Positions 9,908-27,890 are shown, numbered from the stretch's first letter. The stretch: DNA of 64,000 bases from Candidatus Nomurabacteria bacterium RIFCSPHIGHO2_01_FULL_41_71 (GCA_001785355.1 MFTQ01000004.1:3612-67611), one strand, 5' to 3'. Notes: generated from the letters alone by a model not told the origin. Translations and numbers: made by a program.

Positions 9908-10624
9908 ATGAAACTGATTCATCAAGTTCGGGCGGTAAAAAATAAAAGAGAAATTGCCAATATTAAAAAAGCTCAAAAATTAAGCGAATTATTACTTTAT
10001 GATGTTTTGAAAAAGTTAAAAACAGGAGTAACGGAATTCGACATTGCTCGATTTATAACTAATCGGTTTGTAAAATTAGGCGCGCCAATACTTTCTTTTC
10101 CGCCCATTGTGGCTTTCGGTAAAAATTCAGCCAATATTCATCATACCCCCGGCAAGACAAAACTCAGAAGGGGAGATTTCATTATGCTTGATTTTGGTTG
10201 CACAATAAATGGGTATTGTTCGGATATGACTCGCACTTATTTCTGGGGCGAACCGACAAAAAAACAAAAGAAAATTTATTTGGCTGTATTAGGAGCTCAA
10301 AATCGCGCTTTGAAACAAATCCAGAAAGGAGAGCGCAGGGCCAAAATCATAGACAGATTCGCGCGGGGTTTTCTGGCGAAAGTTTTCAAGAATAATTTTA
10401 AACACGGGCTTGGTCACGGAGTGGGAACCGTGATTCATGAATGGCCGAATTTCAAGCCAAAAAGCGAAGATATTATCCCTGCCGGATGCGTGATGACTGT
10501 CGAACCCGGGCTCTATTTTAAAGGTTTCGGCGGGGTGCGAATAGAAGATATGATTTTAATTGCAAAAAATGGCTACAAAAACCTAACTAACGTGCCAAAA
10601 GATATAAAAAGTGTTATACTGTAA
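9908..10624 (+). CDS. M24-family metallopeptidase (Xaa-Pro peptidase/MetAP-like catalytic domain only)
   Basis: DFGCTINGYCSDMTRT, HGLGHGVG and VEPGLY…GGVRIED form a pita-bread fold with the expected metal ligands. Confidence 0.65.
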   Translation: MKLIHQVRAVKNKREIANIKKAQKLSELLLYDVLKKLKTGVTEFDIARFITNRFVKLGAPILSFPPIVAFGKNSANIHHTPGKTKLRRGDFIMLDFGCTINGYCSDMTRTYFWGEPTKKQKKIYLAVLGAQNRALKQIQKGERRAKIIDRFARGFLAKVFKNNFKHGLGHGVGTVIHEWPNFKPKSEDIIPAGCVMTVEPGLYFKGFGGVRIEDMILIAKNGYKNLTNVPKDIKSVIL

Positions 10625-10628
10625 AGGC

Positions 10629-13031
10629 ATGGCGCGTAACCATTTTTTGCAAAAAAAAATTAGAATCGCTATTTTAACTGGAGGGCCTTCCCTGGAACGT
10701 GGAATTTCACTCAATTCCGCCCGCAGTGTGCTTGATCATCTGGGAAGTCTGGAGGTCGATGTCGTTCCAATCTATTTTGATGAAAAGAAAAAACCGTATA
10801 AAATATCCACTGCTCAGCTTTATTCCAACACCCCGAGCGATTTTGATTTTAAGCTTCGAAAAACGGGTAGATTCCTTTCCGAATCCGCCCTTATTCGCGT
10901 TTTAAAGAGTGTTGATATTGTTTTTCCCGCCATTCACGGCTCTTTTGGCGAAGATGGCGAAATTCAAAGTTTTCTTGAAAAACACAAAATACCTTTTATT
11001 GGAACCTCTTCCAAATCATGCAAAATAGCTTTTGATAAATTTCGAGCCAATGAATATATCCGCTCGCTTGGTTTTTATGCTCCGAATTCCATAGTGCTCA
11101 AAATTACCGATACCAAGAAAAATATTTTTAAAAAAATAACCGAATTTTGGAATAAAGAAAAAATAACTCGCGCCATAATAAAACCTTCTTCCGGAGGTTC
11201 GAGTATTGGTGTGTTTTCGGTAGAAAATATTTCCGATGCAGTGACAAGTGTTGAGACGCTTTTTCGGAAACGTATGGATACTCGGGTGGTGATGGAACCT
11301 TTTATGAAGGGCAAGGAATTCACGGTGATTATATTGGAAAACAGATTTAACCAAGCGGTGGCCATGATACCTTCGGAGATCGAGGTTGAATATGATGAAA
11401 ATCAATTTTTCGATTTTCGCAAAAAATATCTTCCTACTCGCCAAGTGACCTACCATTGTCCGCCGAGATTCGGGAATGAGATTATCGAAAAGATTCAGAT
11501 AGAAGCCGAACAGCTTTTTTCTGTTTTTGGTATGCGGGATTTTGCGCGTTTTGACGGGTTTTTCTTGCCGGACGGCAATGTATGGTTTTCGGATTTTAAT
11601 CCAATTTCTGGCATGGAACAAAACAGTTTTCTCTTTCAGCAATCTTCCAGAGTTGGTTTTTCTCACCGGGATTTATTTCGTTTCATCATAAATAACGCTT
11701 TTTTACGCAGGAAAATCAAAAAAACAATTAAAAATATTTCGCTGTCGGAAAAAAGAAAACCGGTAGCGGTGCTTTTTGGAGGAGAAACCGCGGAAAAACA
11801 AACATCTCTTATGAGCGGTACGAATGTCTGGCTTAAATTGCGGGGCTCCAAGCTTTATAAACCTCTTCCTTATCTTTTGGGAAAGGACAGAGAGGTCTGG
11901 GAATTGCCCTACTCGTATATTCTCAATCATACAGTGGAAGAAATAACAGAAAATGCCAAAAAGGCCCAAAAAGATTTTGCTAGGCTTCGTTTTCTTGTAG
12001 AAAAAGTAAAGCTTGGTCTCGCGCTAAAAAGGGGAGAAGTCACGGAAGAATTTTTTATACCCAGAAAGCTTTCGATCGGAGATCTTATCAAACAGCATAA
12101 ATTTATTTTTCTCGGCTTGCATGGAGGGATAGGAGAAGATGGAACTATCCAAAAAATACTTGAAGAAAAAAAAGTGAAATTCAACGGATCCGGAAGCGTT
12201 GCCTCAAAACTCTGCATGGACAAGTGGGCGACAAGCGAGACCATAGCGGAAGCTCATATTCCGGGCGTAAGCGTAGCCAAACATTTTTTACTCCGTCAGG
12301 GCGATATCGCCGAAATTATTAAAACAAAACAACAAAATAAATACTGGAATATGCTTTTGCAAAAGCTTGGCACAAGAACATTGATTGTCAAGCCTCGAGG
12401 AGATGGATGTTCGGCCGGAGTGGTAAGGCTCCAGAATTCAAAAGATTTATTTGCTTATCTTTCTTTAATTAGAAAAAAAATTCTGATGGTCCCGCCTGGG
12501 ACTTTTACCAGACAAAAAACTCCCGTAAATATGCCCGAGAACCCCTCCGATATAATTTTTGAATCTTTTATTGAAACAGATAAACTGAAAACAGTCGGGG
12601 GCGAAATTGTCTATGTCAGACGAAGCGGATATTTGGAAATAACGATAGGGGTGCTGGAAAAAGACGGCAGGCTAGAGGTTCTCTCCCCCTCTATTACTAT
12701 TGCTGAATCGGTAATTCTTGGCGTGGAGGAGAAGTTTCAAGGAGGCACGGGGGTAAATATTACTCCTCCACCGAAAGAAATAATTTCTCAAAAAAATTTA
12801 AATAAAGTCAAAAAACAAATTGAACAGGTGCTAAAAACGCTCAAAGTTCGAGGATATGCCAGAATCGATGTCTTTGTCCAAATAGCCACAGGGAATATAA
12901 TAGTGATAGAGGTCAATACCTTACCCGGACTTACTCCCTCGACTGTGTTTTACCACCAAGCTCTTGCGGAGAATTTTCCGATTCAACCCATTCAATTATT
13001 GGAAAAAATTATAAAAAATGCCGGCTATTGA
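10629..13031 (+). CDS. ddl: tandem fusion of two D-alanine--D-alanine ligase-like ATP-grasp modules
   Basis: The N-terminal half has IAILTGGPSLERGISLNSA…ARFDGFF…NPISGME. The C-terminal half has VAVLFGGETAEKQTSL…ARIDVFV…EVNTLPGLTPSTVF. ATG 10629 is chosen because an AAGG lies 4 nt upstream. Confidence 0.75.
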   Translation: MARNHFLQKKIRIAILTGGPSLERGISLNSARSVLDHLGSLEVDVVPIYFDEKKKPYKISTAQLYSNTPSDFDFKLRKTGRFLSESALIRVLKSVDIVFPAIHGSFGEDGEIQSFLEKHKIPFIGTSSKSCKIAFDKFRANEYIRSLGFYAPNSIVLKITDTKKNIFKKITEFWNKEKITRAIIKPSSGGSSIGVFSVENISDAVTSVETLFRKRMDTRVVMEPFMKGKEFTVIILENRFNQAVAMIPSEIEVEYDENQFFDFRKKYLPTRQVTYHCPPRFGNEIIEKIQIEAEQLFSVFGMRDFARFDGFFLPDGNVWFSDFNPISGMEQNSFLFQQSSRVGFSHRDLFRFIINNAFLRRKIKKTIKNISLSEKRKPVAVLFGGETAEKQTSLMSGTNVWLKLRGSKLYKPLPYLLGKDREVWELPYSYILNHTVEEITENAKKAQKDFARLRFLVEKVKLGLALKRGEVTEEFFIPRKLSIGDLIKQHKFIFLGLHGGIGEDGTIQKILEEKKVKFNGSGSVASKLCMDKWATSETIAEAHIPGVSVAKHFLLRQGDIAEIIKTKQQNKYWNMLLQKLGTRTLIVKPRGDGCSAGVVRLQNSKDLFAYLSLIRKKILMVPPGTFTRQKTPVNMPENPSDIIFESFIETDKLKTVGGEIVYVRRSGYLEITIGVLEKDGRLEVLSPSITIAESVILGVEEKFQGGTGVNITPPPKEIISQKNLNKVKKQIEQVLKTLKVRGYARIDVFVQIATGNIIVIEVNTLPGLTPSTVFYHQALAENFPIQPIQLLEKIIKNAGY

Positions 13032-13872: not shown

Positions 13873-14031
13873 ATGTCTCAAGATCGACTTATAAAACTTG
13901 CTTGTTCCGCTTGTAAACGTATAAATTATTGGTCTGCCAAAAACAAGAAACTGGTAACTAAAAAAATCGAACTCAAAAAATATTGCAAGTGGTGCAAAAA
14001 ACAAACCAAGCACAAAGAAGCGAAGAAATAA
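13873..14031 (+). CDS. rpmG: 50S ribosomal protein L33
   Basis: A 52-aa ORF absent from the track (below 60 aa): MSQDRLIKLACSACKRINYWSAKNKKLVTKKIELKKYCKWCKKQTKHKEAKK. It has two CxxC pairs, like L33. Confidence 0.8.
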   Translation: MSQDRLIKLACSACKRINYWSAKNKKLVTKKIELKKYCKWCKKQTKHKEAKK

Positions 14032-14088: not shown

Positions 14089-14159
14089 GGGTGGTTAGTT
14101 AAGTGGCATAACTGCGGTCTCCAAAACCGCCGTCGGGGGTTCGATTCCCTCACCACCCG
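14089..14159 (+). tRNA. tRNA-Trp (anticodon CCA)
   Basis: The acceptor stem GGGTGGT pairs with ACCACCC. The anticodon stem GCGGT/ACCGC carries the loop CTCCAAA, and the T-loop is GGTTCGATTCC. No CCA is encoded. Confidence 0.8.
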
Positions 14160-14166
14160 CACGTTG

Positions 14167-14183
14167 AAATCAGCTGATTTTTT
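14167..14183 (+). terminator. weak hairpin plus T-run after tRNA-Trp
   Basis: AAATCAGCTGATTT palindrome followed by TTTTT. The stem is AT-rich. Confidence 0.3.
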
Positions 14184-14303
14184 ATGGGTTATTTTTTGAC
14201 GCTCTGAAAGGGAATGGAACTTTGTCTAGTATGTTAACCTCAGTTCGTCTAAGATAGTCAACCATTAATGCATCATTAACAGCTAGCACGAGACACATAG
14301 AAG

Positions 14304-14312
14304 TGCTAAAAT
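14304..14312 (+). promoter_or_regulatory. extended -10 (TGCTAAAAT) six nt upstream of the giant-ORF ATG, possibly leaderless
   Basis: The same TGCTAAAAT motif heads both 116-bp repeats at 18733 and 19843. Confidence 0.3.
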
Positions 14313-14318
14313 CTATAA

Positions 14319-17300
14319 ATGAAAATGGAGTCGCCAGTTTTTACAGAAAGGTCTAAAAGGTCAAAAGAACCTTTGGAACCACACGATATTCCCTCGGCTA
14401 TGAGCCAGATTAAAGAGGGACAAGAACAAACTCCTGACCAAGAAAGAATCTTGATTGATATACAAACCTATCTTGATGCAGCTCATGATATTTTTGAAGA
14501 TATAGAAACTAAAAGACCAATATTACCAGACTTACCCGAAAGCCCTAGCGCAGAAGTGCCGCTTGATTTCTCTGAACTTTCTCGGCAGTTGAAATCTAAA
14601 TTAGCTCAATTAGACAAAATGACTTCTAGAAGTTTTGGAGCACAACATAGGCTAAGCGAAGCTGGTCATAGAAATAGACGAAGAATAGAAAAAGTAGAAG
14701 ACCCTGTGGATGAATATTCCAAATGGTCGAGTACCTTGGAAAGTCAGTATTCAAATGTAAATTCCCAAATTAAACCTCTCGAAGCCGCATTAGTTCTACA
14801 TCGAGAATGCCAAGAATTAGGTAAAGAATATAAAACTATAATAAGCAGAAGATTTTCGGTGCCTGAGAAAGATTTAAGAAATCAGATAGATAAATTACTA
14901 GAAGAGTGCCTTTCACAAATAAGAGCTTTAGGAAGAAATCCTTTAAAATACACCGAGAAGCTAGCATTAAAAAGAAAGTGTGCTGAATTTATTGATATCA
15001 CACACAAAGTATATTTGATTGAAAATCTTTTTCCCGAAATAAGACATTCAGGATATAACTATGCTCTTAGTTGGAAAGATGGTTTAAAATATGACATATC
15101 GATACCCGTTGGCCATCTGTACGAACAAGTAGGTGTGAATTTACGTTTAAAAATCAATCAGTTAAAAACTTTAATCGCAGAAAGCAAAAAAAAAGAAACA
15201 GACGCAATTTCTCCGAAAGATTTAGCAATTCTTAAAGGAGATTTTTTTACAAAATATGTCCTTCCTCACATTTCCAATCTTCCTCCAGATATTCAAGCCG
15301 AAATATTATCCGAATATAATGAAAAAGGAACTGTTTACTTAAATCGATATGGTGTAGAAGACAGAAATGCCGCGGAAAGAATATCTTATGCTAGAATGAA
15401 TGAAAAAATAGAAGACAGTTTTAAATCGCTTGCTGATTTGCTTCGTAATGGAGATCCTGTCGGTGAAGCTTATAAATTGATTAAGCAAGAATTACCGAAG
15501 TTAATGGAAGAGCGTCCTTTGAAATATGATTTTGATGATATTTCTCGAACTCGACTTGAAAGTCCTATAATGAGAGCGGTCAAAGAATTACCTCGGCTGA
15601 AAGTTTTTATGGAAAGCCATGTGTTCCTTAATGCTACACCCGAAGAGCGAGAGAGGTTTCTAGAAAATGCCAGAAGTTTGATAAGTGAATATCTAAGTCA
15701 AGGAAAAATTATTGAGCCTACATCTCTAGCGGATAAATTATTATCACATCCAAACCCCGCAATCGCTCTAGAAATCATAGATTCTAGCTCCAATGAAAGC
15801 CGTAGTAGAAGCAACGAAGCAATACTTTTTATTTTTCAGCTTTTTCGGGAAAGTTCGGTAGAATCTGAAAGAAGTATTTTATCGAATATGCTTCATCGGT
15901 TCACCAATGACATAACTACCTATCAAGATCAGATTGTTGAAATCTTGCCCAGCCAAAGTAAAAGTATATATATTTTAGGCAGAGAGCTACTAATGAAACT
16001 GGCCACTCAAAATATGCCTATACCGCCTTTGTTATGGGAGCGAATGGAATCATATTTGGAAGATACGGTTGAACATATGGAAAAGGAAAAGGATTATAAG
16101 ATTCTAGTTCCTATTCTTAACGAAATCGCCAACGGAAGTGAAGCAGGTAATAGATATTTTGCCAACGAAGCGCTCATGTTGGCTATATATAGACATTTAG
16201 GTAAGGCTAATTTTATGCTTCCTGACGGATTGTTATTCATTAAAGATTCTAAAAACATCAATCTTATTATCGAGGGTTATAGAAAATATTTTGGTATGCA
16301 AAGCATCGATTTACCAGATAGCGAAAAATTCCAACTTGCTTTTCAAAAAGGATTGACCATTACTCAGCTATTTTCTCATTATGACAATGATGTAGAGAGT
16401 TTCTTTGACGATAAATTATTTCAAAAACTTTATGAATATCCGGAACTTGAGAAGCTTCTGACTGATCTTATTAGTCGCATTCAAACATTAAGCGATAGAA
16501 CTATTATTTCTCGAATTTTTTATTCTGTTCTACCATTCCTTCTAGAGACAGCATTCGCCGTCGATTCCAAAGAAGGTGAAACCGAATTTACGGCTCGTCT
16601 GAATAGAATATCAGAGTATTATGAAAAAGTTCTAGAAAAAACTAAGGAAGAAAAAAGTGCTCTTCAATTTTACTTGGGCGATAGTGCTTGGGAAGTAATA
16701 AAATTTCATCCACATCCAACCGATCTTCTTCTAGAATTTCCCGAACAAGCTCCGCTTTTATTTAAGGAAGAGCAAAGAGGACTTCAGAATCTCATATCTT
16801 CGAATTTTAATGTGCTTATAAAGGATAAGACGGATATGATTTTTCTAAATCAACTTGTTGGTAGATTTGGAGGAAATGCTCCCCAGCTAATAACAGACTA
16901 TCTTCAATGTTTAAAAGAAGGCGCGCTCACATTGGACGAAAAAGGATTAGTCGAAGAATTTCTTGGAAAATTTAGAGTTCTTTCGCCTGCCATTATAAAT
17001 GGTTATCGAGAAGCAAAAGCATCGCATACAGAGGAAGTTTTCATTGCTGGTTTAGAATCGATTGCCGAGCATGCTACTGGGCAAGGTAATCCAACTGAAA
17101 CACAACGACAGTCTCCATTTTATAAAGATGTTTTAAGGGCCATTTATCAAAACAATTCCGGACAATGGACTACTTTCGAGAAGAATGAGAGCTGTAAAGA
17201 CAGGTCAGCGGATTTACAAGGCTTCAAAATAAAAGAACGTTATGAAATCGATCTTCTGGCGGCTGGAGATATTAAAATGAAGCCAGGAGCAGAATTAGAT

Positions 17301-18521
17301 CGGAAAGGAATGGCGCAACTTGAAGAAGGAGTTACTTATATAGCAGACGAATTTAAGGCAGCTAATTTTGATCCGGAAATAGTTAAGAAAAAGGTCAATG
17401 ACCGTATCGAAGAAGTCTTCAATTTATTTACTGGAAGCGAAGTATTAAAAGATCTTGATGTAACGTCACTGACGCTTGAGCAAAAATTATTTATTATTTT
17501 ATCAGAAACAACTTACGGAACACCTCCAATTGAACCCAGAGAAGTTAAAAAACTTCTTTTTGAATACGAATTTGCTAACTTCGAAGATATTCGGGAATAC
17601 ATTCAAGGTACAAACGATAGAGTAGCAACTGCTCAAAATCGAGATTATGCTCTCTTGTGCGAATTCCATAGTCTTTTTGCCGACAGAATCAAAGAAATCA
17701 ACCGCCGACTGATTACGGCCGGATGGGAAAATACCGAGATTGCTAAAAAAATGCCGGCATATTTTGCGCAATTATCAAAAAAACGTGGAGACGCCGCAAG
17801 GGTAGAAAAAATAAATAAATTACAAATTGGAAAACTCGGCTTGAATGATACATTTTTGAAACAAATGAAAAGAGTGTTGAATAAAAAAGCAGGCACCAAT
17901 TATTCTGACGAACAAGTACGGCAAATTATTGCTAGATATGAAAGAATGACATCTGGATTGACAGAAACTAGTACATCTACCAAAGGAAGAACTCGCGAAT
18001 TTGCCGGTCAATTACGCGGGCAAAAAGAGAAAACCAGAAAAGCATTAGAGTTACTAGACGGCAAAAAACTAAATCCGGAAGAATTCCGTTTGGGCCATTT
18101 AGATTTCAATCAATATCTTGATGCCGAAAATGCAATTGGAAAAGGAACGTACAACGATGAACAATTTGCTTCATACACACTTCAACAATTTATCGGTATT
18201 TTTACCGAAGAACGAGAATTTGTTGAGGGAGAACTTGATAAATTTATGACTTCTTCCGGGAAAAATCGAGCGCGGCTTAGTGGTTACATTTCCAAATCTC
18301 CTGAGACTGCTCACGCCCGTATGGTTGGTGGAGTATGCGTTTCCGGAGATAATCCAAATCGAGGAGAAAAAAACATGTGGGATATGGAAAATTATTTTCA
18401 GTTAGTTCTTCAAGATCCAGAAACTAAACGCTGCCAGGGTATAGTATTGCTCCATCATTTCGAAGAGAACGGCCAGAAAATTTTAACTGCAGCTTTTAAT
18501 CCCTATGGCAAATGGATTTGA
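14319..18521 (+). CDS. 1400-aa orphan hypothetical protein, probably cytoplasmic
   Basis: One uninterrupted ORF. By eye it has no signal peptide or TM segment and no Walker A or HExxH motif. The sequence is rich in helix-favouring and acidic residues. Confidence 0.7.
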   Translation: MKMESPVFTERSKRSKEPLEPHDIPSAMSQIKEGQEQTPDQERILIDIQTYLDAAHDIFEDIETKRPILPDLPESPSAEVPLDFSELSRQLKSKLAQLDKMTSRSFGAQHRLSEAGHRNRRRIEKVEDPVDEYSKWSSTLESQYSNVNSQIKPLEAALVLHRECQELGKEYKTIISRRFSVPEKDLRNQIDKLLEECLSQIRALGRNPLKYTEKLALKRKCAEFIDITHKVYLIENLFPEIRHSGYNYALSWKDGLKYDISIPVGHLYEQVGVNLRLKINQLKTLIAESKKKETDAISPKDLAILKGDFFTKYVLPHISNLPPDIQAEILSEYNEKGTVYLNRYGVEDRNAAERISYARMNEKIEDSFKSLADLLRNGDPVGEAYKLIKQELPKLMEERPLKYDFDDISRTRLESPIMRAVKELPRLKVFMESHVFLNATPEERERFLENARSLISEYLSQGKIIEPTSLADKLLSHPNPAIALEIIDSSSNESRSRSNEAILFIFQLFRESSVESERSILSNMLHRFTNDITTYQDQIVEILPSQSKSIYILGRELLMKLATQNMPIPPLLWERMESYLEDTVEHMEKEKDYKILVPILNEIANGSEAGNRYFANEALMLAIYRHLGKANFMLPDGLLFIKDSKNINLIIEGYRKYFGMQSIDLPDSEKFQLAFQKGLTITQLFSHYDNDVESFFDDKLFQKLYEYPELEKLLTDLISRIQTLSDRTIISRIFYSVLPFLLETAFAVDSKEGETEFTARLNRISEYYEKVLEKTKEEKSALQFYLGDSAWEVIKFHPHPTDLLLEFPEQAPLLFKEEQRGLQNLISSNFNVLIKDKTDMIFLNQLVGRFGGNAPQLITDYLQCLKEGALTLDEKGLVEEFLGKFRVLSPAIINGYREAKASHTEEVFIAGLESIAEHATGQGNPTETQRQSPFYKDVLRAIYQNNSGQWTTFEKNESCKDRSADLQGFKIKERYEIDLLAAGDIKMKPGAELDRKGMAQLEEGVTYIADEFKAANFDPEIVKKKVNDRIEEVFNLFTGSEVLKDLDVTSLTLEQKLFIILSETTYGTPPIEPREVKKLLFEYEFANFEDIREYIQGTNDRVATAQNRDYALLCEFHSLFADRIKEINRRLITAGWENTEIAKKMPAYFAQLSKKRGDAARVEKINKLQIGKLGLNDTFLKQMKRVLNKKAGTNYSDEQVRQIIARYERMTSGLTETSTSTKGRTREFAGQLRGQKEKTRKALELLDGKKLNPEEFRLGHLDFNQYLDAENAIGKGTYNDEQFASYTLQQFIGIFTEEREFVEGELDKFMTSSGKNRARLSGYISKSPETAHARMVGGVCVSGDNPNRGEKNMWDMENYFQLVLQDPETKRCQGIVLLHHFEENGQKILTAAFNPYGKWI

Positions 18522-18732
18522 CCGGATAGAAGTTTCTAAAAGTAAAACAATCCGCACTAACCGGACTGGAGGAGAATTTGAACGTGAAATGGATCGACGA
18601 ATCACTGCAATTGGTGTCACTGATGCCTTTGCTGAACCTAGACAGTTCTCATTCAATCCGAACTATAATTTAAAAGACATGGACGTAATATGGGAGAAAA
18701 AAAAAGTATAGAGAATTATTTCTTTTAAAATG

Positions 18733-18848
18733 TGCTAAAATAAGGCTTGTTTATTAGATTAAGCAATCAAATTAAATCCTTCAAAAACACTATTCCACTT
18801 AAGAATCATTGTTTGTATAGTGTTCCACTCCAGGATTTGAAAGCCCGC
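18733..18848 (+). repeat. 116-bp direct repeat copy R1 (candidate structured sRNA)
   Basis: Aligns without gaps to 19843..19958 at 98/116 identity. It starts with TGCTAAAAT and contains the AACACTAT…ATAGTGTT hairpin. Confidence 0.7.
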
Positions 18849-19057
18849 ACAATTTAATTTCTTTTTCACTTTTAGTTTAGTGTTTTTGCTTTTAATATTT
18901 TCCCTTCAGAAACTTTCTAAGTTAAAAAACTTTTGAAGGGAGAGGGGTATGAACAAATCAATGCAAGAACCCCTCTTCTTATGTCTCACTACGCACGTGA
19001 GACCTGCGTCCTCATTTTTATAAAAACGGGGATAAAATTAAAGGACAGCGAAGGTCG

Positions 19058-19639
19058 CTACCACTCCGTGAACATGACCTTCCCGCCGTCATAGATAATC
19101 AGACGGCGGAAATTCATCCCAGGGATTCGGGTCAGAGCGAACTCGACATAACCCTTGTCTGCGTGATAGATGACCCCGTCTATCACTTGAGACTTCACGG
19201 CAAGGTGCGCCAAGTGCTGATGGGGTTGATTCCTGCCCTGATTCAGTGCGGGACAATCGAGAGTAACCAGGTCAATGTTCTGAATCTGGACGCCGTCAGC
19301 GCCGTGCCAGATCCCAACAATAACCCTAGTGCTATTCTGCACGTTCTGGAAGGTAAACGTGCAGAAGGGGACTTGACCATTCTCCCACAGCACTGCCGAC
19401 TTCCAGACTCCCTGGGCTCTCTTGACATCAAAATCCACCACTGGTTTTCCGTCAAGCACCTTGGGACAGGGACTCGCCATGTCAACAAGAATCCGTGCCA
19501 GATAGCGGATCGCGGGTTGGACATCCCTCTTGGCCAACCTTTCCAGCATTTCCGGACGTCCGCCCAAGGCGACGACCTCTTCCTCCAGTGCTTGCCAGAA
19601 CGACTTCCAGATGTCGCAGACGCGAATGAACTCCAACAT
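19058..19639 (-). CDS. hypothetical protein in a ~55% GC cassette
   Basis: 193-aa ORF (MLEFIRVCDIWKSFWQALEEEVVALGGRPE…). The overlapping ORFs 19163..19726(+) and 19243..19710(-) are judged GC-richness artefacts. No family was recognised. Confidence 0.4.
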   Translation of the reverse strand: MLEFIRVCDIWKSFWQALEEEVVALGGRPEMLERLAKRDVQPAIRYLARILVDMASPCPKVLDGKPVVDFDVKRAQGVWKSAVLWENGQVPFCTFTFQNVQNSTRVIVGIWHGADGVQIQNIDLVTLDCPALNQGRNQPHQHLAHLAVKSQVIDGVIYHADKGYVEFALTRIPGMNFRRLIIYDGGKVMFTEW

Positions 19640-19842
19640 ATGTCCCCCGTTACGCGGCTGTGCCCTATGGTCTGGCTTAATTGCCAGAGCTGTGAGCTGT
19701 ACCGCCGCATTCGAGCATTACTTTAACATACCTTTCAAATAAATCAAGGCCATAAGGTAATGTGAAAGCGGGCTTTCCATTTTTACTTTCTGTTCTATGA
19801 CTCAATAGTTAACCCCTTTAATTTTTAAAGGTAATTAAAGTA

Positions 19843-19958
19843 TGCTAAAATAAGGCTGGTTTATTAGATTAATTTACCAGATTAAAACCCTGGAAAACAC
19901 TATTCCATTTTATAACCATATTTTCTATAGTGTTCCAGTCCAGGATTTGAAAGCCCGC
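19843..19958 (+). repeat. 116-bp direct repeat copy R2
   Basis: 84% identical to R1. Substitutions at positions 48, 50, 51 and 96 create a CTGG/CCAG helix that R1 lacks. Confidence 0.7.
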
Positions 19959-20018
19959 TTTGAGTGGAAATAGGCTTTTCAAGAAACTTGAATGGGTATA
20001 TACTTATGACGTAACTTT

Positions 20019-20411
20019 ATGAAATACGTTTTCACCACAATTTTAATTTTTAGCTTTATCGGCATAGCTGTGTTCGGTTTGTTACAGTTTAGTCATGCCA
20101 GTCACACACCCGAGGCGCCGATGATAAATTGTCCCTACGCAGAGAATAGTTACTCAATCTGCCAAAGTAGTCTTGATCATATCAAAAACTGGCGTCAATT
20201 TTCGAATGTGATTATTCCATCGCTATCCATTTTCTCACTTCTGGTTTTAGGAATAGTCTTGTATCTATTCGGTAAACAGAATCTTTTAAAACAAAACCAG
20301 TATTTTTATAAATGGAAATATTTTTTATACGATCAAAAGTTACATACCTACAAAGAAAGAATAATCAAATGGCTAGCACTTTTTGAAAATAGCCCCTCTC
20401 TTTCATATTAA
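20019..20411 (+). CDS. hypothetical small membrane protein
   Basis: 130 aa with two hydrophobic helices and two Cys in the extracytoplasmic loop. Confidence 0.4.
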   Translation: MKYVFTTILIFSFIGIAVFGLLQFSHASHTPEAPMINCPYAENSYSICQSSLDHIKNWRQFSNVIIPSLSIFSLLVLGIVLYLFGKQNLLKQNQYFYKWKYFLYDQKLHTYKERIIKWLALFENSPSLSY

Positions 20412-20492
20412 GACATAGCTCTGAATTTTGTCGTAAAATTTTTAGTTATGTCTTTTAAGTCCTTCACAAGAGGATTTTTACTATTGTAAATT

Positions 20493-21071
20493 ATGGAAAA
20501 AAATATGAAAGACAAAAATAAAATTATCGCATTCATCGTTATAATAGCAATTCTTATCATTGGGCTTTTCTTTTTTGGAAAGCCTGGTAAAGATGAAGGT
20601 GTTGCAACCAGCGCTAAAGGAATTCCAGAAGGCGCTCAAGAATTAGTAAACTCACATACAGCAGGAACAGAAGATATAACTACAAGTATTTTGACTGCCC
20701 CAGAAACATTCTATGACTTCGGCACTATCTCTATGAAGAATGGCAATGTAAGTAAAGTATTTAAAGTAACTAACTTCACAACTCAAGATATAAAAGTACC
20801 AAGTTTAACCACTTCTTGTATGTGCACCACTGCGTACATCATAAAATCAGATGGAAGTAGAAGTAGACCTTTTGGTATGCCTGGTCACGGCGGGGCAGTT
20901 CCCAAGGCCAACGCTATCGTAGGAGCCGGTGGATCACTCGACATTGAAGTTGTCTTTGATCCGAATGCTCACGGTCCGGCCGGAGTCGGACTTATTGAGC
21001 GCGTCGTTTTTCTGGAAGACGAGAACAAAAATACAGTCGAGCTCAAGTTTAGAGCTAACGTAACTCCATAA
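20493..21071 (+). CDS. DUF1573-like membrane-anchored protein
   Basis: An N-terminal TM anchor, then FYDFGTISMKNGNVSKVFKVTN…SCMCTT…PGHGG. This resembles the DUF1573 S-C-x-C-T core. Confidence 0.5.
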   Translation: MEKNMKDKNKIIAFIVIIAILIIGLFFFGKPGKDEGVATSAKGIPEGAQELVNSHTAGTEDITTSILTAPETFYDFGTISMKNGNVSKVFKVTNFTTQDIKVPSLTTSCMCTTAYIIKSDGSRSRPFGMPGHGGAVPKANAIVGAGGSLDIEVVFDPNAHGPAGVGLIERVVFLEDENKNTVELKFRANVTP

Positions 21072-21076
21072 ATAAT

Positions 21077-21859
21077 ATGAAAAAATTCATTATTACAATT
21101 AGCATTATTATTATTATTGTTATAGTTGGATTAGTTGTGCTAAAAAATAGTTCAATTATTTCATCAATAATCTGGAGTTTGAGTAGAGAAGGTACTTGGC
21201 TTCTGCCCCTTGTCCTTATTGCCGCCATCCTAGATAGCGTGCATCCCTGCTCATTCTCAATTCTTCTTATAACCATTGCATTTCTTTTTGGTATGCAAGT
21301 AAGTCGAAAAAAAATCCTTCAACTAGGTGGGACATATGTAGTTGGTATATTCATGGCATATTTCCTAATTGGGCTTGGAATACTAAAAGTACTGCATCTC
21401 TTCAATACCCCCCATTTTATGGGGAAATTGGGGGCGACGGTTCTTATTATCTTTGGTGTGTTAAATCTTCTTAATCGTTTCTTTCCGGCATTTCCGATCA
21501 AACTCAAAATTCCAGGAGTAGCTCATTCAGCTATGAGTAAGTTCATGGATAAAGCGTCGTTTCTTGCTGTATTTATCCTTGGAATACTTGTTGGTATTTG
21601 CCAATTCCCATGTATGGGTGGACCATACCTTATGGTTATCGGACTCTTGCGCGATCAAATGACATATATGAGCGGATTCAATTATCTTTTGCTCTATAAC
21701 TTCATTCTGATTATTCCCTTGGTTGCGATTTTGTTCATATCAGCAAACAAATTATTGGTTGACAAAATGCAGATATGGAAGCGTGACAATATAGACGAAG
21801 TCCGACTTTGGGCGGGAATTGCCATGATTATTATTGGAATCTTAATTTTCTTTATTTAA
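21077..21859 (+). CDS. DsbD/CcdA-family thiol-disulfide transmembrane protein-like
   Basis: A polytopic membrane protein. It has a conserved LDSVHPCSFSILL helix and a second Cys-bearing helix, GICQFPCMGGPY. Confidence 0.45.
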   Translation: MKKFIITISIIIIIVIVGLVVLKNSSIISSIIWSLSREGTWLLPLVLIAAILDSVHPCSFSILLITIAFLFGMQVSRKKILQLGGTYVVGIFMAYFLIGLGILKVLHLFNTPHFMGKLGATVLIIFGVLNLLNRFFPAFPIKLKIPGVAHSAMSKFMDKASFLAVFILGILVGICQFPCMGGPYLMVIGLLRDQMTYMSGFNYLLLYNFILIIPLVAILFISANKLLVDKMQIWKRDNIDEVRLWAGIAMIIIGILIFFI

Positions 21860-21861
21860 TT

Positions 21862-22173
21862 ATGATTATTCCCATAATATCTATTTTTCTCTTGACTCTA
21901 AGCGTATGGGTAATTAATAAAAAATTGCCTATACAAATCTGTTCTATTTGCGCTGGGGTAACACTCACGTGGCTTTGGATGCTTGGAGGGATGTGGTTGG
22001 GGTTTATTTCTGTTTCTCGTTATGAGTTTCCAGTTGCAATCTTGATGGGCGCTACAATCGGGGGCATCGTGACAGAACTCAAAAAAATGTTCTTGAAATT
22101 CAGAAACAAAAATGAGTTAAAAGAAAATAAAGAAGTCGAATCATTAGAAGATAAGTTAAAAAATTGTTGCTGA
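21862..22173 (+). CDS. small membrane protein with a CxxC motif at a TM boundary
   Basis: MIIPIISIFLL…LPIQICSICAGVTLTWLWM and a C-terminal CC. An internal ATG is used to avoid overlap with the upstream gene. Confidence 0.4.
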   Translation: MIIPIISIFLLTLSVWVINKKLPIQICSICAGVTLTWLWMLGGMWLGFISVSRYEFPVAILMGATIGGIVTELKKMFLKFRNKNELKENKEVESLEDKLKNCC

Positions 22174-22174
22174 A

Positions 22175-22981
22175 ATGAAAAATAGAATAAAAGAAATATT
22201 ATATGGATTTTTAGTTATTTTTGTGATTTTGGTTTTGGGTTTTACTCCAGTTGCCCAAAAAGAATTATTTTCTTTGGATTGGAAAAACTTTGGCTTACAA
22301 ATGGTCGAAGCTGGAGTAATTGATCAAACAAAGTTTGAAAATCTCTATACCCAAAGAGGCGGACTGAGCGAAGCTGATAAAAAATTGCTTTACGGAGCTG
22401 ATAATAAAAATCTTGTAATTAATTCTGAAAACTCAGGAGTAGTGTTAAATATGCTTTGGGCTTTTGGGCTAGCTAATAAGAATCCGATTCTAGAAAATGG
22501 TTCGATAATGGACCCTAAATATGGAGGTGCGGGAAATTTCGCATCTACGGGCGGATGGACATTGGCCAAAGGAAATGCAATGGATCACTACAGTATGCAT
22601 TCGTTTGTGACACTTACACCAGAACAGCAAGCACTCGTCGAAAGGGTTTCAAAAGGAATATTTAGACCATGTTGCAACAATTCGACTTATTTTCCGGATT
22701 GTAATCACGGCATGGCTATGCTGGGATTACTAGAACTTATGGCTTCACAAGGAGCAACTGAAGCAGATATGTATAAAATTACCTTAGAGGTAAATACACT
22801 GTGGTTTCCAGATACATACGAAGCAATTAAAACCTTTGTCACATCTCAAGGTATTGATTGGAACACCATTGACCCAAAAAAAATCCTAGGAGCTGATTAT
22901 TCGAGTGTGTCGGGGTATCAAAAGATATTATCACAAATAAAACCACAGGAACAAAAGGGAGGAGCAAGCTGTGGAGCTTAA
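22175..22981 (+). CDS. membrane-anchored Cys-rich hypothetical protein
   Basis: An N-terminal TM anchor and the cluster RPCCNNSTYFPDCNHGM. Confidence 0.45.
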   Translation: MKNRIKEILYGFLVIFVILVLGFTPVAQKELFSLDWKNFGLQMVEAGVIDQTKFENLYTQRGGLSEADKKLLYGADNKNLVINSENSGVVLNMLWAFGLANKNPILENGSIMDPKYGGAGNFASTGGWTLAKGNAMDHYSMHSFVTLTPEQQALVERVSKGIFRPCCNNSTYFPDCNHGMAMLGLLELMASQGATEADMYKITLEVNTLWFPDTYEAIKTFVTSQGIDWNTIDPKKILGADYSSVSGYQKILSQIKPQEQKGGASCGA

Positions 22982-23002
22982 AAGATTAATTAAAAAATCA
23001 TT

Positions 23003-23533
23003 ATGAAAACAGAACACAAAGTATTTATAGGAATTGGATTATTAACATTAGTTATTATCGTGGGTGGCACATTGTTGTCTACCAAAGGGGGATTAAAAAA
23101 ACAAGAAGAACTTAGCAAGACCATGATGGGAGAAAAGATTGCTGATTTAGGCGCAGCGCATGTTGCAAAAAATGCGCCACATTCGGGATATAATTCAAAT
23201 CCTCCGACTTCCGGACCACATTGGACTGGCGTGGCGGGAGCCGGAATTAAAGACGAGCCTGTTCCCGACGAACTTGTGCTTCATAGTATGGAGCATGGCG
23301 CAGCGGTTGTGTGGTATAGGGAGGATTTAGCACAAAGTGATGTAGATATAATTAGGAGCGCATTTCAAAGTGCATCCGGGAAAAAAATAATGTTGCCACG
23401 TAAAGATCTAGATGTTCCAGTCGCTCTTACATCATGGGGTTACCTTCTTGAACTTGATACGATTGATGGTGAAAAAATTAAAAAATTCATAGAAACCAAT
23501 AACGATAGGGCCCCAGAGAAAGCGCCTATTTAA
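23003..23533 (+). CDS. DUF3105-like membrane-anchored protein
   Basis: NPPTSGPHW and HSMEHGAAVVWY motifs after an N-terminal TM segment. Confidence 0.5.
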   Translation: MKTEHKVFIGIGLLTLVIIVGGTLLSTKGGLKKQEELSKTMMGEKIADLGAAHVAKNAPHSGYNSNPPTSGPHWTGVAGAGIKDEPVPDELVLHSMEHGAAVVWYREDLAQSDVDIIRSAFQSASGKKIMLPRKDLDVPVALTSWGYLLELDTIDGEKIKKFIETNNDRAPEKAPI

Positions 23534-23559
23534 GGAATTGGTTATCCACAGCTCTTGAT

Positions 23560-23597
23560 TTGACAATAGGATATAGGGGTATATACTACTATAGTAG
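23560..23597 (+). promoter_or_regulatory. promoter TTGACA-16-TATACT with a CTACTATAGTAG palindrome over the -10/TSS (candidate CsoR operator)
   Basis: The -35 box is at 23560-23565 and the -10 box at 23582-23587. The 12-bp perfect palindrome is at 23586-23597, and csoR starts 31 nt downstream. Confidence 0.35.
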
Positions 23598-23627
23598 GTC
23601 GAGATTAATAACTAATTTATATAAATT

Positions 23628-23900
23628 ATGTTAGATCAAAAATTAAAAAAGAGAGCATTACATCGGGCTAAAATAATTCGTGGTCAGATAGATGGTCTAG
23701 TTAAAGCAATTGAGGTAGAAAAATATTGTGTTGATCTCATTACACAATCTCGGTCAATTCAACTGTCATTAAAAAGTATGGATAGGTTACTTTTGGCTAA
23801 CCATCTTCAGGGACATGTAAAGCATATGCTCAATGACACAAAACAAGAACATAAAGTCATTAAAGAACTCGTGGATCTGTATGCATTATCAAATAAATAA
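23628..23900 (+). CDS. CsoR/RcnR/FrmR-family metal-sensing transcriptional repressor
   Basis: 90 aa. LHRAKIIRGQIDGLVKAIEVEKYCVDLITQSRSIQ…ANHLQGHV shows the DUF156 fold signature with Cys and His ligand positions. Confidence 0.65.
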   Translation: MLDQKLKKRALHRAKIIRGQIDGLVKAIEVEKYCVDLITQSRSIQLSLKSMDRLLLANHLQGHVKHMLNDTKQEHKVIKELVDLYALSNK

Positions 23901-23905
23901 AATTT

Positions 23906-24157
23906 ATGAATACTACACGTGCCATTAAAATAGGATTAGCTTGGATAAACATCACATATATATTATGTTATGTCATTTGGGGATTATTGCCTATAGCCCG
24001 ACCATCAGTTCTTCCATATATTTTGCATCTTAATGTGGGTCCTGTAGAAACTATCTTTACCTTCGGTAATTTCATTGGTGGACTGGTTCTTTGGAATGTG
24101 ATTACGGGAGCTGGTATTTGGTTTGTTGGTTTTCTTGCTAAATATATTAAAAATTAA
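23906..24157 (+). CDS. hypothetical small membrane protein
   Basis: 83 aa and very hydrophobic. Confidence 0.4.
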   Translation: MNTTRAIKIGLAWINITYILCYVIWGLLPIARPSVLPYILHLNVGPVETIFTFGNFIGGLVLWNVITGAGIWFVGFLAKYIKN

Positions 24158-24171
24158 TTACAAAAATTGAT

Positions 24172-24417
24172 ATGATGTACGGATATAATAACTATGGTGA
24201 TTGGGGTGCTGGTAGTATGGTAGGTTGGTTTGGTGGTGGATTTATGATGTTTTTTTTCTGGGCTCTGATTATTATCTTCATTGTTTGGGTTGTGCGTGAA
24301 GTTGGCAGTAAAAATTCAAAATCAGGATCAAATGCTCTTGATATTTTAAAAGAACGATATGCAAAAGGTGAGATTGATAAAAAAGAGTTCGAGGAAAAGA
24401 AAAAAGATTTAATTTAG
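24172..24417 (+). CDS. SHOCT-domain membrane protein
   Basis: A TM helix, then LDILKERYAKGEIDKKEFEEKKKDL. This is the SHOCT short C-terminal motif. Confidence 0.6.
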   Translation: MMYGYNNYGDWGAGSMVGWFGGGFMMFFFWALIIIFIVWVVREVGSKNSKSGSNALDILKERYAKGEIDKKEFEEKKKDLI

Positions 24418-24431
24418 TAAAATAAAATTCT

Positions 24432-24755
24432 ATGAAACTAGGTATTATTTTACAATCAAATAAACCAGAACACATATGGAATACATTTCGTCTTGGCATT
24501 ACTACACTTAAAGCTGGGCATCAAGCGGAAGTTTTTTTAATGAACGAAGGTTCAGAATTAGACTCTATTCCTGACACCAAAGATTTTGATATTTCTGCAA
24601 GAGTGGCTGAATTCAAAAACCTAAAAGGTAATGTTTATGTTTGTGGCACTTGTATAAAATTACGGGGAAAAGAAAGCAACATATGTCCAGTTTCCACGAT
24701 GTCGGACTTACTTAAAATGGTTGAAAGTTCAGATAAAGTTTTAGTTTTTGGTTAA
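24432..24755 (+). CDS. DsrE/DsrF-like family protein
   Basis: 107 aa. ILQSNKPEH…VCGTC with a conserved Cys is typical of DsrE-like proteins. Confidence 0.5.
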   Translation: MKLGIILQSNKPEHIWNTFRLGITTLKAGHQAEVFLMNEGSELDSIPDTKDFDISARVAEFKNLKGNVYVCGTCIKLRGKESNICPVSTMSDLLKMVESSDKVLVFG

Positions 24756-24813
24756 AATTAGCATTTAATAAAAATAATTCTTAATTTTGGCATCTTAAAA
24801 AATCTTTAAAGAT

Positions 24814-27051
24814 ATGAAAAATAATTACCAAGATCATAAGGAAACAGAAGAAATAATATATACCTGCCCAATGCACCCGGAAGTAATCAAGAACATTCCT
24901 GGCTCATGCCCAAAGTGTGGCATGAGACTTGTGAAGACTGAAGCAAAAACACGCAATAGTGATCATGCTGGTCATGTAATGGGTGATCCATCAAAAATGG
25001 GTTTCTGGGAGAAATTTAAAATGAGCATGTCGATGACAATGGGTATGGATCATACAGGACTTGCCGGTCGGGAAATGGCGCGTCTCATGGAGATAGATAT
25101 TCGGAATAAATTCTTCTTCACGCTTATTCTTACAATTCCTATTATTTTGTATTCACCTCTAGGCACGGAGTTTCTGAAAATTAATCTTCCTTTCCCAATA
25201 CCACTTCCCTGGCTCCTCTTTATTTTAACAACACCGGTATTTTTCTATTCTGGTTGGATTTTTCTATATTCAACATACTTTGCTCTCAAAAGTAAGGTGC
25301 TCAATATGGCGGTGCTCATTGCCGTCGGTATTACCGCGGCTTATGGCTTCAGCATTTTATTAACCCTGATCGGTAGTGCCGATTCATATTACGAAGCGGC
25401 CGCTATGCTTATTACTTTTGTCTTGTTTGGTCACTGGATGGAGATGAAATCTCGTCGCGGAACAACCGACGCTCTCCAAGCACTTTTCAATCTCGTCCCG
25501 CCTCAAGCCAGAATTTTTAAAGATGGGAAGGAAGTAATGGTTTCCACTTCAGATATACAACTTGGCGACATTATTATATTGAAGCCGGGAGACAAGGTTC
25601 CTGTCGATGGAGAAATTACCGAAGGGGAAACCGCCATAGATGAATCTTTGGTTACTGGGGAATCAATTCCTACTTCAAAAAAGATTGGGGATCAAGTAAT
25701 TGGCGGATCAATCAACACTGCCGGATCGGTGAAATTTAAGGCGACAAAAGTCGGCAAAGACACCGCTCTTGCACGAATTGTGGCGATGGTTGAAGAAGCG
25801 CAGAATTCAAAAGCCCCTGGACAAAGAATTGCTGATCAGTTTGCAAAATATTTAGTTATTGGGGCAGTCGGATCTGGTCTTTTAGTTTTTGGTGTTTGGT
25901 ATTTTATTATGGGGGTACCGATTATTCTAGCACTCTCCTTTGCGATCGCTACGGTTGTCATTGCCTGTCCCGATGCGTTAGGACTTGCTACACCGACTGC
26001 TGTGGCTGTCGGCACAGGCCTCGGAGCAAAACATAATATTCTTATAAAAGATGCACCAACTCTTGAACAAGTTTCAAAAATCCAAGCCATTGTGCTCGAT
26101 AAAACAGGAACTCTAACTGAAGGAAAGCCGAAAATAATAGATGTTGCTACCGTAGATGGTTTTGATGCAAGCGAAGCACTTCGTCTAGTCGGTGCGGCTG
26201 AAGCTAAGTCATCCCACCCTTTGGCTGGTGCGGTACTCAATGAACTTAAAAAACGTGGCCTTACATTGCCAGAGTCGGTTGATAAATTTGAAAATCTTTC
26301 TGGCTTGGGGGTGAAAGCTATCGTAGATGGAAAACAAGTTCTGATAGGTACAGTGAAGCTCATGAAAGAAAACAACATTGTTCTCGGGGCATTAAAGAAA
26401 CAAATAAATGAGTTTCTGGAAAAAGGGGAAACGATCATGATTCTTGCGGTTGACGGCGCTGTCAAAGCTGTAATCGGTGCGGCTGATCCAATAAAACCTA
26501 CCGCTGTAAAAACGGTTGAACGATTGAAGGCTTTGGGTATTGAAATTGCCATGATCACGGGCGACAATAAAATGACCGCAGAAAAAGTAGCCAGTCAAAT
26601 TGGCATCGAAAGAGTGTTTGCTGAAGTAATGCCTGCAGACAAAGCAAGCTATGTAAAAAAGTTACAACAGGAAGGAAAATTCACGGCCATGGTCGGAGAT
26701 GGAGTTAACGACGCACCCGCGCTCGCTCAATCTGATGTGGGCATTGCCATTGGTGCAGGCACGGACGTAGCTATAGAGACCGCAAAAGTCGTGTTGATGA
26801 AATCTGACCCGTTAGATATACTGCGAGCAATAACCTTGAGCAAGGCAACAGTTCGCAAAATGAAACAAAATCTTTTCTGGGCTTCAATTTATAATGTTCT
26901 AGCGATACCAGTTGCCGGTGGAATTCTGTATCCTAGCTTCGGTATTATGCTTCGTCCGGAATTTGCGGCACTCCTTATGAGTATTTCTTCAATAATCGTT
27001 GCAACAAATGCAGTATTATTAAAAAGAGTCGAGAAAGATTTAGTAGTATAA
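24814..27051 (+). CDS. copA: copper-translocating P1B-type ATPase
   Basis: N-terminal TCPMHPEV…CPKCGM metal-binding domain and a Met-rich MSMSMTMGM stretch. The other motifs are TGES, DKTGTLT and GDGVNDAPAL. The TM6 motif reads CPD where CPC is usual. Confidence 0.9.
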   Translation: MKNNYQDHKETEEIIYTCPMHPEVIKNIPGSCPKCGMRLVKTEAKTRNSDHAGHVMGDPSKMGFWEKFKMSMSMTMGMDHTGLAGREMARLMEIDIRNKFFFTLILTIPIILYSPLGTEFLKINLPFPIPLPWLLFILTTPVFFYSGWIFLYSTYFALKSKVLNMAVLIAVGITAAYGFSILLTLIGSADSYYEAAAMLITFVLFGHWMEMKSRRGTTDALQALFNLVPPQARIFKDGKEVMVSTSDIQLGDIIILKPGDKVPVDGEITEGETAIDESLVTGESIPTSKKIGDQVIGGSINTAGSVKFKATKVGKDTALARIVAMVEEAQNSKAPGQRIADQFAKYLVIGAVGSGLLVFGVWYFIMGVPIILALSFAIATVVIACPDALGLATPTAVAVGTGLGAKHNILIKDAPTLEQVSKIQAIVLDKTGTLTEGKPKIIDVATVDGFDASEALRLVGAAEAKSSHPLAGAVLNELKKRGLTLPESVDKFENLSGLGVKAIVDGKQVLIGTVKLMKENNIVLGALKKQINEFLEKGETIMILAVDGAVKAVIGAADPIKPTAVKTVERLKALGIEIAMITGDNKMTAEKVASQIGIERVFAEVMPADKASYVKKLQQEGKFTAMVGDGVNDAPALAQSDVGIAIGAGTDVAIETAKVVLMKSDPLDILRAITLSKATVRKMKQNLFWASIYNVLAIPVAGGILYPSFGIMLRPEFAALLMSISSIIVATNAVLLKRVEKDLVV

Positions 27052-27888: not shown

Positions 27889-27890
27889 TT

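Follow-up and report, generated by a model that had tools for sequence, protein, structure and literature searches.

A truncated member of an unnamed, mostly Patescibacteria-labelled protein family with a predicted GNAT-like domain, found in a lineage-specific insertion next to tRNA-Trp in Candidatus Nomurabacteria

We analyzed a stretch of 64,000 nucleotides from Candidatus Nomurabacteria bacterium RIFCSPHIGHO2_01_FULL_41_71 (GCA_001785355.1, MFTQ01000004.1:3612-67611), hereafter called the window, and focused on the large open reading frame (ORF) at positions 14319..18521. According to a taxonomy look-up, the name Candidatus Nomurabacteria is placed under the Parcubacteria group, within the Patescibacteria group. 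Unless a minus sign is given, all features of the window described below are encoded on the plus strand. The ORF starts with ATG and encodes a protein of 1400 aa. The original prediction, made without database searches, had described this protein as an orphan, possibly with a role in host interaction, that is encoded behind rpmG and tRNA-Trp on an integrated island. The explanation that we favor, with moderate confidence, is a different one: the ORF is a damaged gene of an unnamed protein family whose conserved module ends in a GNAT-like domain, and it heads a 12.9-kb insertion between tRNA-Trp and miaA. The positions of the ORF, of rpmG (13873..14031), and of tRNA-Trp were confirmed by ORF calling, Pfam, and ARAGORN/Rfam.

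The 1400-aa protein is rich in E, K, and L and contains no transmembrane segment, signal peptide, Walker A, HExxH, CxxC, or LPXTG motif; its maximum 19-residue Kyte-Doolittle mean is 1.47. The charged composition and the lack of membrane segments, Walker A, and HExxH motifs that had been read from the sequence by eye were thus borne out. The same holds at the profile level for the lack of a recognizable domain, since scans of the protein against Pfam, NCBIfam, and PHROGs gave zero domain matches. The identical 1400-aa protein is deposited at NCBI as OGI74407.1, OGI77674.1, and OGI89046.1, each annotated as a hypothetical protein of Candidatus Nomurabacteria bacterium. An exhaustive HMMER search spanning 1.84 billion cluster representatives (50%-identity clusters) identified 193 homologous representatives with E≤1e-3, of which 119 reach E≤1e-30, and every one of the 193 matches covers the C-terminal ∼600 aa of the window protein. 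The orphan status was therefore lost, to a family without a name. By sequence comparison, the big gene is a member of this large and mostly Patescibacteria-labelled family.

Word-indexed searches were far less productive. The window protein itself retrieved only the identical protein, P0002 (1485 aa, 81% identity), and P0003 (42%); the full-length family alignment retrieved three proteins, dominated by low-complexity words, and the C-terminal module alone retrieved 12. A pattern scan in which each GTDB species was represented by a single genome gave 25 loci. The titles of 13 of them name Gottesman-, Roizman-, Woese-, Uhr-, Peri-, or Saccharibacteria, Parcubacteria, Paceibacterota, or simply the 'Patescibacteria group', and the other 12 come from third-party metagenome-assembled genomes (MAGs) that carry, as deposited and unverified, the labels Gammaproteobacteria or Pseudomonadales. 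All source names of family members read hypothetical protein, and a literature search for a description of the family turned up nothing specific. A Pfam scan of 30 members gave N-terminal HEAT repeats in two, isolated unrelated matches in another two, and no GNAT. Two other identities were considered and rejected: a phage origin, because the viral contigs of IMG/VR yielded a single 37-aa family fragment, and a defense system, because the PADLOC models gave zero family matches.

Family members are 600-2100 aa long and consist of a variable helical N-terminal region (300-1400 aa) followed by a conserved C-terminal module of ∼660 aa. The N-termini are mutually unrelated. In the window protein, the variable region comprises residues 1-830 (14319..16808), for which only P0002 provides a full-length match (81% identity). 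It is followed by the conserved all-helical domain of the module, residues ∼831-1308 (16809..18242), as delineated by the family-wide alignment and a structure model, and by the first half (β1-β4) of an α/β domain at 18243..18502, which was assigned from the predicted topology and Foldseek matches and ends at a deletion junction. The ratio of nonsynonymous to synonymous substitution rates (dN/dS), calculated against the contig that encodes P0002 (L001), is 0.125 for the whole gene. The N-terminal 830 codons show values of 0.16-0.24, and the conserved module shows 0.03-0.06. Because of these values, we regard the ORF as a coding gene that was under selection for most of its history.

For the conserved module, we obtained an AlphaFold2 model of P0002 residues 830-1485 from a 15-sequence alignment (pLDDT 79.4, pTM 0.61). 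Residues 1-476 of the model are all-helical plus one hairpin, with pLDDT mostly between 70 and 93, and gave no credible structural match in the Protein Data Bank (PDB) or BFVD with Foldseek. Residues 479-654 form an α/β domain with the order β-α-β-β-β-α-β-α-β-β. This matches the GNAT order β1-α1-α2-β2-β3-β4-α3-β5-α4-β6-β7 except for a single helix between β1 and β2. GNAT acetyltransferases were also the sole high-probability Foldseek matches in the PDB, with NatD/Naa40 (7kd7) as the best (E 1e-3), followed by KKT23, Hat1, RimJ, Naa50, and GNA1. A model of the domain alone (pLDDT 67.9) returned the same list of GNATs, with 7kd7 at E 2e-4, and the high-probability matches in BFVD were exclusively viral GNATs. 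A FemX-like aminoacyl-tRNA transferase was considered in view of the ileS and cell-wall neighbors of some family genes and rejected, as no Fem structure was among the top 50 Foldseek matches.

A number of observations weigh against this assignment. The GNAT matches lie at 8-15% identity and TM-scores of 0.4-0.6 (about 0.3-0.55 relative to the PDB targets with the full model), and they concern predicted structures only. Neither Pfam nor NCBIfam has an acetyltransferase profile that matches the window protein, its homologues P0002 and P0003, or any of 30 further members. Moreover, the Q/R-x-x-G-x-G/A motif for the pyrophosphate of coenzyme A (CoA) is absent between β4 and α3 in the family alignment; this position is occupied by a conserved N-P-S-S-T-Y-L-Y-x-V-D-E instead, so that cofactor and chemistry could differ from those of a canonical GNAT. 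Profile searches of the PDB were uninformative as well: with the full-length alignment they returned coiled-coil and designed-helix noise from the N-termini, and with the module or the domain alone nothing real and no GNAT. On the other hand, the alignment contains invariant D, Y, E, K, and R positions in the helical domain and, in the α/β domain, invariant K, R in ARMVGG, C, D in SGD, N-P, T-N-R-x-G-G, Y, and W. The latter positions suggest a real active or binding site, whatever its chemistry. At the level of structure prediction, we therefore describe the C-terminal domain of the module as a divergent, GNAT-like α/β domain.

In intact members, the helical part could serve as a scaffold or substrate-binding platform, on which the GNAT-like domain would transfer an acyl group, probably acetyl, onto a protein or cell-envelope substrate. 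Scaffolded acyl transfer to such a target is the likeliest function that the modeled fold points to, but we put it forward tentatively, at somewhat below even chances.

This domain is incomplete in the window. The contig L001 aligns to window positions 14304-18502 and 18507-18705 with 82-84% DNA identity, and the global alignment of the two sequences shows a clean 74-nt gap in the window at 18502/18503. The 26 missing codons encode SSTYLYSVDEKALFGGLLKSLEEFAT, which corresponds to the β4-α3 loop and helix α3 and includes the family-invariant residues F589 and A590 (numbering of alignment A3). The resulting frame shift leads to a stop five codons on. Position 18521 is consequently not the natural end of the gene, because the homologues extend ∼90 aa further. 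The out-of-frame remainder of the domain (β5-α4-β6-β7) is still present as a tail ORF of 68 aa at 18505..18711. Its translation, MANGFDRIEVSKSKTIRTNRTGGEFE..., aligns to the C-termini of P0002 and P0003, with which it shares the TNRTGG motif, is 83% identical to P0002 at the amino acid level, and is annotated separately as OGI74408.1. In GNATs, the elements between β4 and α3 hold the pyrophosphate of CoA. Because the deletion takes the β4-α3 loop together with α3, this organism cannot possess a complete transferase-like domain: the deletion would leave a 1400-aa product without a complete transferase domain plus the 68-aa leftover ORF. Most likely, then, the window copy is catalytically dead, a decaying accessory gene. 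What speaks against such a loss of function is that the tail ORF is still intact, with a dN/dS of 0.14. The adjoining part of the module has a lower value of 0.03, but the 66 stop-free codons of the tail are not enough for relaxed selection to be called. Either the deletion is recent or both pieces keep some function.

In two other genomes, the family gene is likewise split into two consecutive ORFs (L009 5356-9959, 579 and 973 aa; L010 1949-6174, 704 and 660 aa). Disruption of the gene may be recurrent, or these splits may be sequencing errors. Concerning L001 itself, this contig is only 4.6 kb long, and its GC-rich flanks (1-121 and 4595-4626) cannot be aligned to the window. Homology begins 15 nt before the ATG, including a TGCTAAAAT box, and stops at the stop codon, as would be expected if the genomic context differs or if the contig is chimeric.

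The second part of our explanation concerns the location of the gene. rpmG, which encodes ribosomal protein L33 (Pfam PF00471, 1.2e-16; TIGR01023), forms the left core flank, and tRNA-Trp (CCA; 14089..14160; ARAGORN, Rfam RF00005 at 63 bits) is the last conserved feature in front of the big gene. We collected relatives by searching metagenome contigs with the MurI of the window and compared 80 loci, one of which (L049) ends within murI. In the 16 closest relatives (L030-L045), MurI is 58-68% identical and rpmG lies beside murI on the same strand. The murI-rpmG pair is kept in all 16, where rpmG is 70-93% identical, and in most of them rseP, map, and ddl lie upstream of it. In 13 of the 16, rpmG is followed by tRNA-Trp; the contigs of L031 and L033 end before it. 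All nine relatives that extend far enough (L030, L032, L034, L036, L037, L041-L044) carry miaA on the minus strand after tRNA-Trp. In four of these nine (L030, L041, L043, L044), murA(-), tRNA-Leu, parB, and relA/spoT(-) then follow as they do in the window at 27040..31787. The gap between miaA and tRNA-Trp in the relatives amounts to 12-1000 nt. In L042, for example, tRNA-Trp ends at 11183 and miaA(-) occupies 11195-12019, and in L043 tRNA-Trp (11052-11123) is followed by miaA (11216-12028), murA (12039-13361), tRNA-Leu (13651), and parB (13816). In the window, miaA (27040..27888, minus; Pfam IPPT 3.9e-60) is the first core gene to the right, and neither the big gene nor any other gene of 14161..27039 was found at the tRNA-Trp junction in any of the 80 loci. 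Because the relatives place miaA(-) straight after tRNA-Trp, we interpret 14161..27039 as a lineage-specific insertion of 12.9 kb.

The insertion contains, after the big gene and the tail ORF, two 124-nt repeats that enclose a GC-rich cassette, a 130-aa ORF, a DUF1573 gene, a DsbD-like gene, ORFs of 121 and 268 aa, and genes for DUF3105, a CsoR-like repressor, DsrE, and a copper P-type ATPase. Its composition deviates from that of the core. The GC content at third codon positions (GC3) is 0.266 in the big gene and 0.22-0.37 in the island genes (0.675 in the cassette ORF), compared to about 0.30-0.46, mostly 0.35-0.46, in core genes; the codon-usage distance of the big gene is 0.176 versus 0.11-0.14 in other long genes. 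The view that the big gene is the first gene of an accessory segment next to tRNA-Trp, with repeats, the GC-rich cassette, and a copper cluster downstream, is thus in agreement with both the synteny of the relatives and GC3. The supposed displacement of secE-nusG by this segment is not. While secE, nusG, and rplK were indeed not found among the annotated ORFs of the window, they do not normally follow tRNA-Trp in this clade, where the neighbor is miaA(-) in nine of nine cases, and they were not found beside tRNA-Trp in any relative. The two ORFs behind tRNA-Trp in L009 (436 and 448 aa) are too long for secE or nusG.

Other relatives carry 0.6-3.6 kb of different genes at the same junction. Read by eye from the ORF translations, this cargo is hypervariable: the junction is empty in L042, L043, and L036, a DedA-like gene is present in L030, L032, L041, and L044, three unrelated ORFs of 552, 458, and 203 aa make up a 3.6-kb insert in L037, and L035, L038, and L040 hold other cargo. 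In the genome of L006 (Gottesmanbacteria), the order at 9683-12056 is rpmG, a 170-aa ORF, tRNA-Trp, and then a 620-aa large serine recombinase with Resolvase, Recombinase, and Zn_ribbon_recom domains. This arrangement suggests an element integrated at tRNA-Trp. Since the recombinase adjoins it, tRNA-Trp appears to be an integration target elsewhere in the phylum. In our reading, the big gene of the window heads a 12.9-kb insertion at a hypervariable tRNA-Trp/miaA junction.

Certain findings do not favor an insertion. No integrase or recombinase domain was found among the island ORFs in the Pfam and NCBIfam scans, and no repeat of tRNA-Trp of at least 16 nt (one mismatch allowed) that could represent an attachment (att) site was found elsewhere in the window. 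Because both are missing, we use the term island only for a lineage-specific insertion at a hotspot, possibly acquired stepwise. In addition, 3 of 22 other loci (L006, L009, and L017) have tRNA-Trp no more than 6 kb away from the family gene, at distances of 1.4-6 kb. With the window included, this makes 4 of 23 loci, compared to ∼0.4 expected by chance according to our own estimate for a ∼1-Mb genome. These points would fit a gene that is ancestral at the tRNA-Trp locus, with losses in the sampled relatives instead of a gain here. We consider this scenario unlikely, though it deserves to be named among the rivals. The four cases of tRNA-Trp proximity all differ in orientation and distance and therefore show no conserved synteny. 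All island genes are missing at this site from the nine closest relatives whose contigs extend to miaA, and in three of these relatives tRNA-Trp abuts miaA. The deviating GC3 and codon usage, the serine recombinase that marks tRNA-Trp as an integration site, and the failure of the L001 flanks to align with the window argue against it as well. Other RNA genes also occur near family genes: tRNA-Thr lies 4 nt past the stop codon in L012, and a tmRNA gene 1.1 kb away in L023. As a side observation, the CsoR-like repressor and the HMBD-containing P-type ATPase of the window island (23628..27051) form a copper-resistance pair, and a homologous pair (12871-15876) is located 3-6 kb from the family gene in the Roizmanbacteria locus L012. 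This co-occurrence may reflect shared content of accessory regions rather than a functional link.

The neighbors of the family gene vary from locus to locus, with the exception of one subclade. In L003/L004/L014 (apparently one species), L010, and L111, the gene order is murG-ftsQ-like-ftsA-ftsZ-small ORF-family gene, and the next genes are ileS-ftsW in L003/L004/L014 and ileS in L010. The conserved small ORF of 87-91 aa has no Pfam match, is located directly upstream of the family gene (L002 243-506; L003 9742-10011; L010 1687-1959; L111 4592-4867; L112 2611-2874), and overlaps by ∼11 nt with the start of the big gene or with that of the N-terminal fragment in L010, where the gene is split, and in L111, where an extra 281-aa ORF precedes it. 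The place of the family gene behind ftsZ, within the division cluster, points to an intracellular role in this subclade. One could go further and regard the whole family as a division or envelope scaffold that acts with FtsZ/FtsA and the ∼88-aa partner, with the GNAT-like domain being structural or regulatory. The conserved order at these loci speaks for it, as do ddl, murI, and mreB on the left and murA on the right flank of the window. Yet the linkage is limited to one subclade and ∼20 other loci have unrelated neighbors, the small-ORF partner was not found in the window, the close relatives lack the gene here, and the copy in the window is broken. Furthermore, chance adjacency is likely, since genomes of the candidate phyla radiation (CPR) are small and rich in division and cell-wall genes. 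We judge such a general division role as improbable as the ancestral scenario.

Still a little less probable is the idea, close to the original prediction, of a lineage-restricted orphan effector or host-interaction protein that is encoded on an island and exported or displayed to the host of an episymbiont. The island location is in line with it, and the N-terminal 830 aa are common to only one close homologue. The highly variable N-termini of the family, together with the higher N-terminal dN/dS, would also be expected of interaction surfaces under diversifying pressure. But a protein with 193 family representatives is no orphan, it lacks any signal peptide, transmembrane, or secretion-associated motif, secretion genes were not found nearby, other lineages hold the gene among core genes, including the position directly after ftsA-ftsZ, and the window copy is truncated. 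An artefact of assembly or sequencing in an organism that encodes an intact protein of ∼1490 aa, to which the intact and conserved tail ORF and the apparent origin of all carrying MAGs from one study system could be taken to point, is very improbable, because the 1400-aa protein and the 68-aa tail each have three NCBI accessions and recur on 10 and 17 contigs, respectively, from several assemblies (NCBI, JGI, ENA, Logan, SRC), and because the clean 74-nt gap lies in coding sequence that is unique and free of repeats, where it would be an atypical assembly error.

Upstream of the big gene, the TG-extended -10-like box TGCTAAAAT is located at 14304..14312, with 6 nt between box and ATG. It is kept in L001. 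The box occurs five times in the window compared to 1.65 expected occurrences, a number reached by 3 of 100 shuffled sequences, and relA/spoT (30318..31787, minus) is preceded by the same box at the same 6-nt spacing. This spacing had been presented as a peculiarity of the big gene. The box and its distance are indeed there, but the oddity does not hold: a TAnnnT motif ends 4-10 nt before the start codon at 22 of 54 gene starts (background 13.5%), and the exact 6-nt spacing is found at 13 of the 54, that is, at the big gene and 12 other starts. Examples of starts with such a -10-like motif are 4431..6401 (minus), 6481, 29341, 30318..31787 (minus), 35764, and 38962. Shine-Dalgarno-like motifs precede only 3 of the 54 starts. 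When a -10 element lies ∼6-7 nt before the start codon, transcription is expected to start at or next to this codon, which yields leaderless mRNAs. Judging from these gene starts, leaderless transcription seems to be the usual case in this genome. The box at 14304..14312 is likely the promoter of a leaderless mRNA, and the big gene would be transcribed from its own TG-extended -10 box.

The region behind the tail ORF contains a 124-nt direct repeat. Copy 1 (18725..18848) carries the TGCTAAAAT box, and copy 2 (19835..19958), which is 84% identical, lies upstream of the 130-aa ORF. Each repeat starts with the promoter-like box and contains a conserved hairpin, AACACTAT...ATAGTGTT, with an RNA folding z-score of about -2.6 in both copies; Rfam identified only tRNAs, both in the repeats and in the whole window. 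The repeats enclose the cassette at 18849-19834, which harbors a 193-aa ORF on the minus strand (19058..19639; GC 0.545, GC3 0.675) with a terminator-like hairpin at 19062-19044 (minus). This ORF gave no match in Pfam, NCBIfam, PADLOC, phage and plasmid collections, or IMG/VR. The layout of repeats and cassette would fit a single-crossover (Campbell-type) integration of a foreign element, and the locus-tag numbering in one NCBI MAG hints at a contig break at this spot. The inserted segment may be a mosaic of several insertions, the GC-rich cassette within its own 124-nt repeats being one of them.

Two further features of the window lie outside the insertion. The ddl gene on the left flank (10611..13031) encodes an 806-aa tandem double D-Ala-D-Ala ligase, in which the Pfam N and C domains are each matched twice. 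This double-length gene is kept in L032, L035, L037, L038, and L040, and the single Ddl of other relatives matches both halves. The ORF at 40014..40625 (203 aa, GC 0.518, GC3 0.588), which has no Pfam match, is the second GC-rich outlier of the window, with values well in excess of those of the adjacent genes.

Patescibacteria constitute a considerable part of bacterial diversity, and no function is known for the majority of their conserved proteins. In this context, an apparent orphan has become a family of at least 190 sequence clusters with a defined module, a testable GNAT-like fold, and a short list of invariant residues. The copy in the window is a damaged accessory gene and not a working effector, and its value lies in providing an entry point to an unnamed CPR family. 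In addition, the tRNA-Trp/miaA junction emerges as a hotspot for accessory DNA in Nomurabacteria, where islands can be integrase-free. A bolder reading, speculative and in our view rather doubtful, would see in the family a Patescibacteria-wide class of large proteins that combines a new helical fold with a GNAT-like, non-canonical site (invariant Cys, Asp, Arg, and Asn in ARMVGGVC-SGD, NPSS, and TNRTGG), acts on a division or envelope target, as the position after ftsZ in one subclade might indicate, and is exchanged within the CPR through tRNA-flanking hotspots.

Compared with known systems, the segment between tRNA-Trp and miaA resembles tRNA-linked genomic islands in that it adjoins the 3' end of a tRNA gene, has no counterpart at this position in close relatives, and has a deviant composition and accessory cargo such as copper resistance, and in that the junction cargo varies between relatives. 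Such islands differ from it by an integrase, an att duplication of the tRNA 3' end, and mobility genes. The predicted α/β domain of ∼175 aa shares its strand and helix order with NatD/Naa40 (7kd7, 4u9w), Naa50, Hat1, KKT23, and RimJ, at Foldseek probabilities of ∼1.0. In contrast to these GNATs, the family contains ARMVGGVC-SGD and TNRTGG, for which we know of no GNAT counterpart, and its domain is fused to a conserved helical domain of ∼470 aa and a long variable N-terminus. In the large bacterial Pat acetyltransferases, the GNAT domain is C-terminal and the N-terminal part is related to acyl-CoA synthetases, and Naa15, the helical scaffold of the eukaryotic NatA, is a tetratricopeptide repeat (TPR) protein. 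Neither an acyl-CoA-synthetase nor a TPR signature was detected in the family, and its helical domain has no credible structural match. In their overall architecture, however, the Pat/PatZ-type acetyltransferases and NatA (Naa10 together with Naa15) likewise join a small GNAT unit to a larger, substrate-selecting part.

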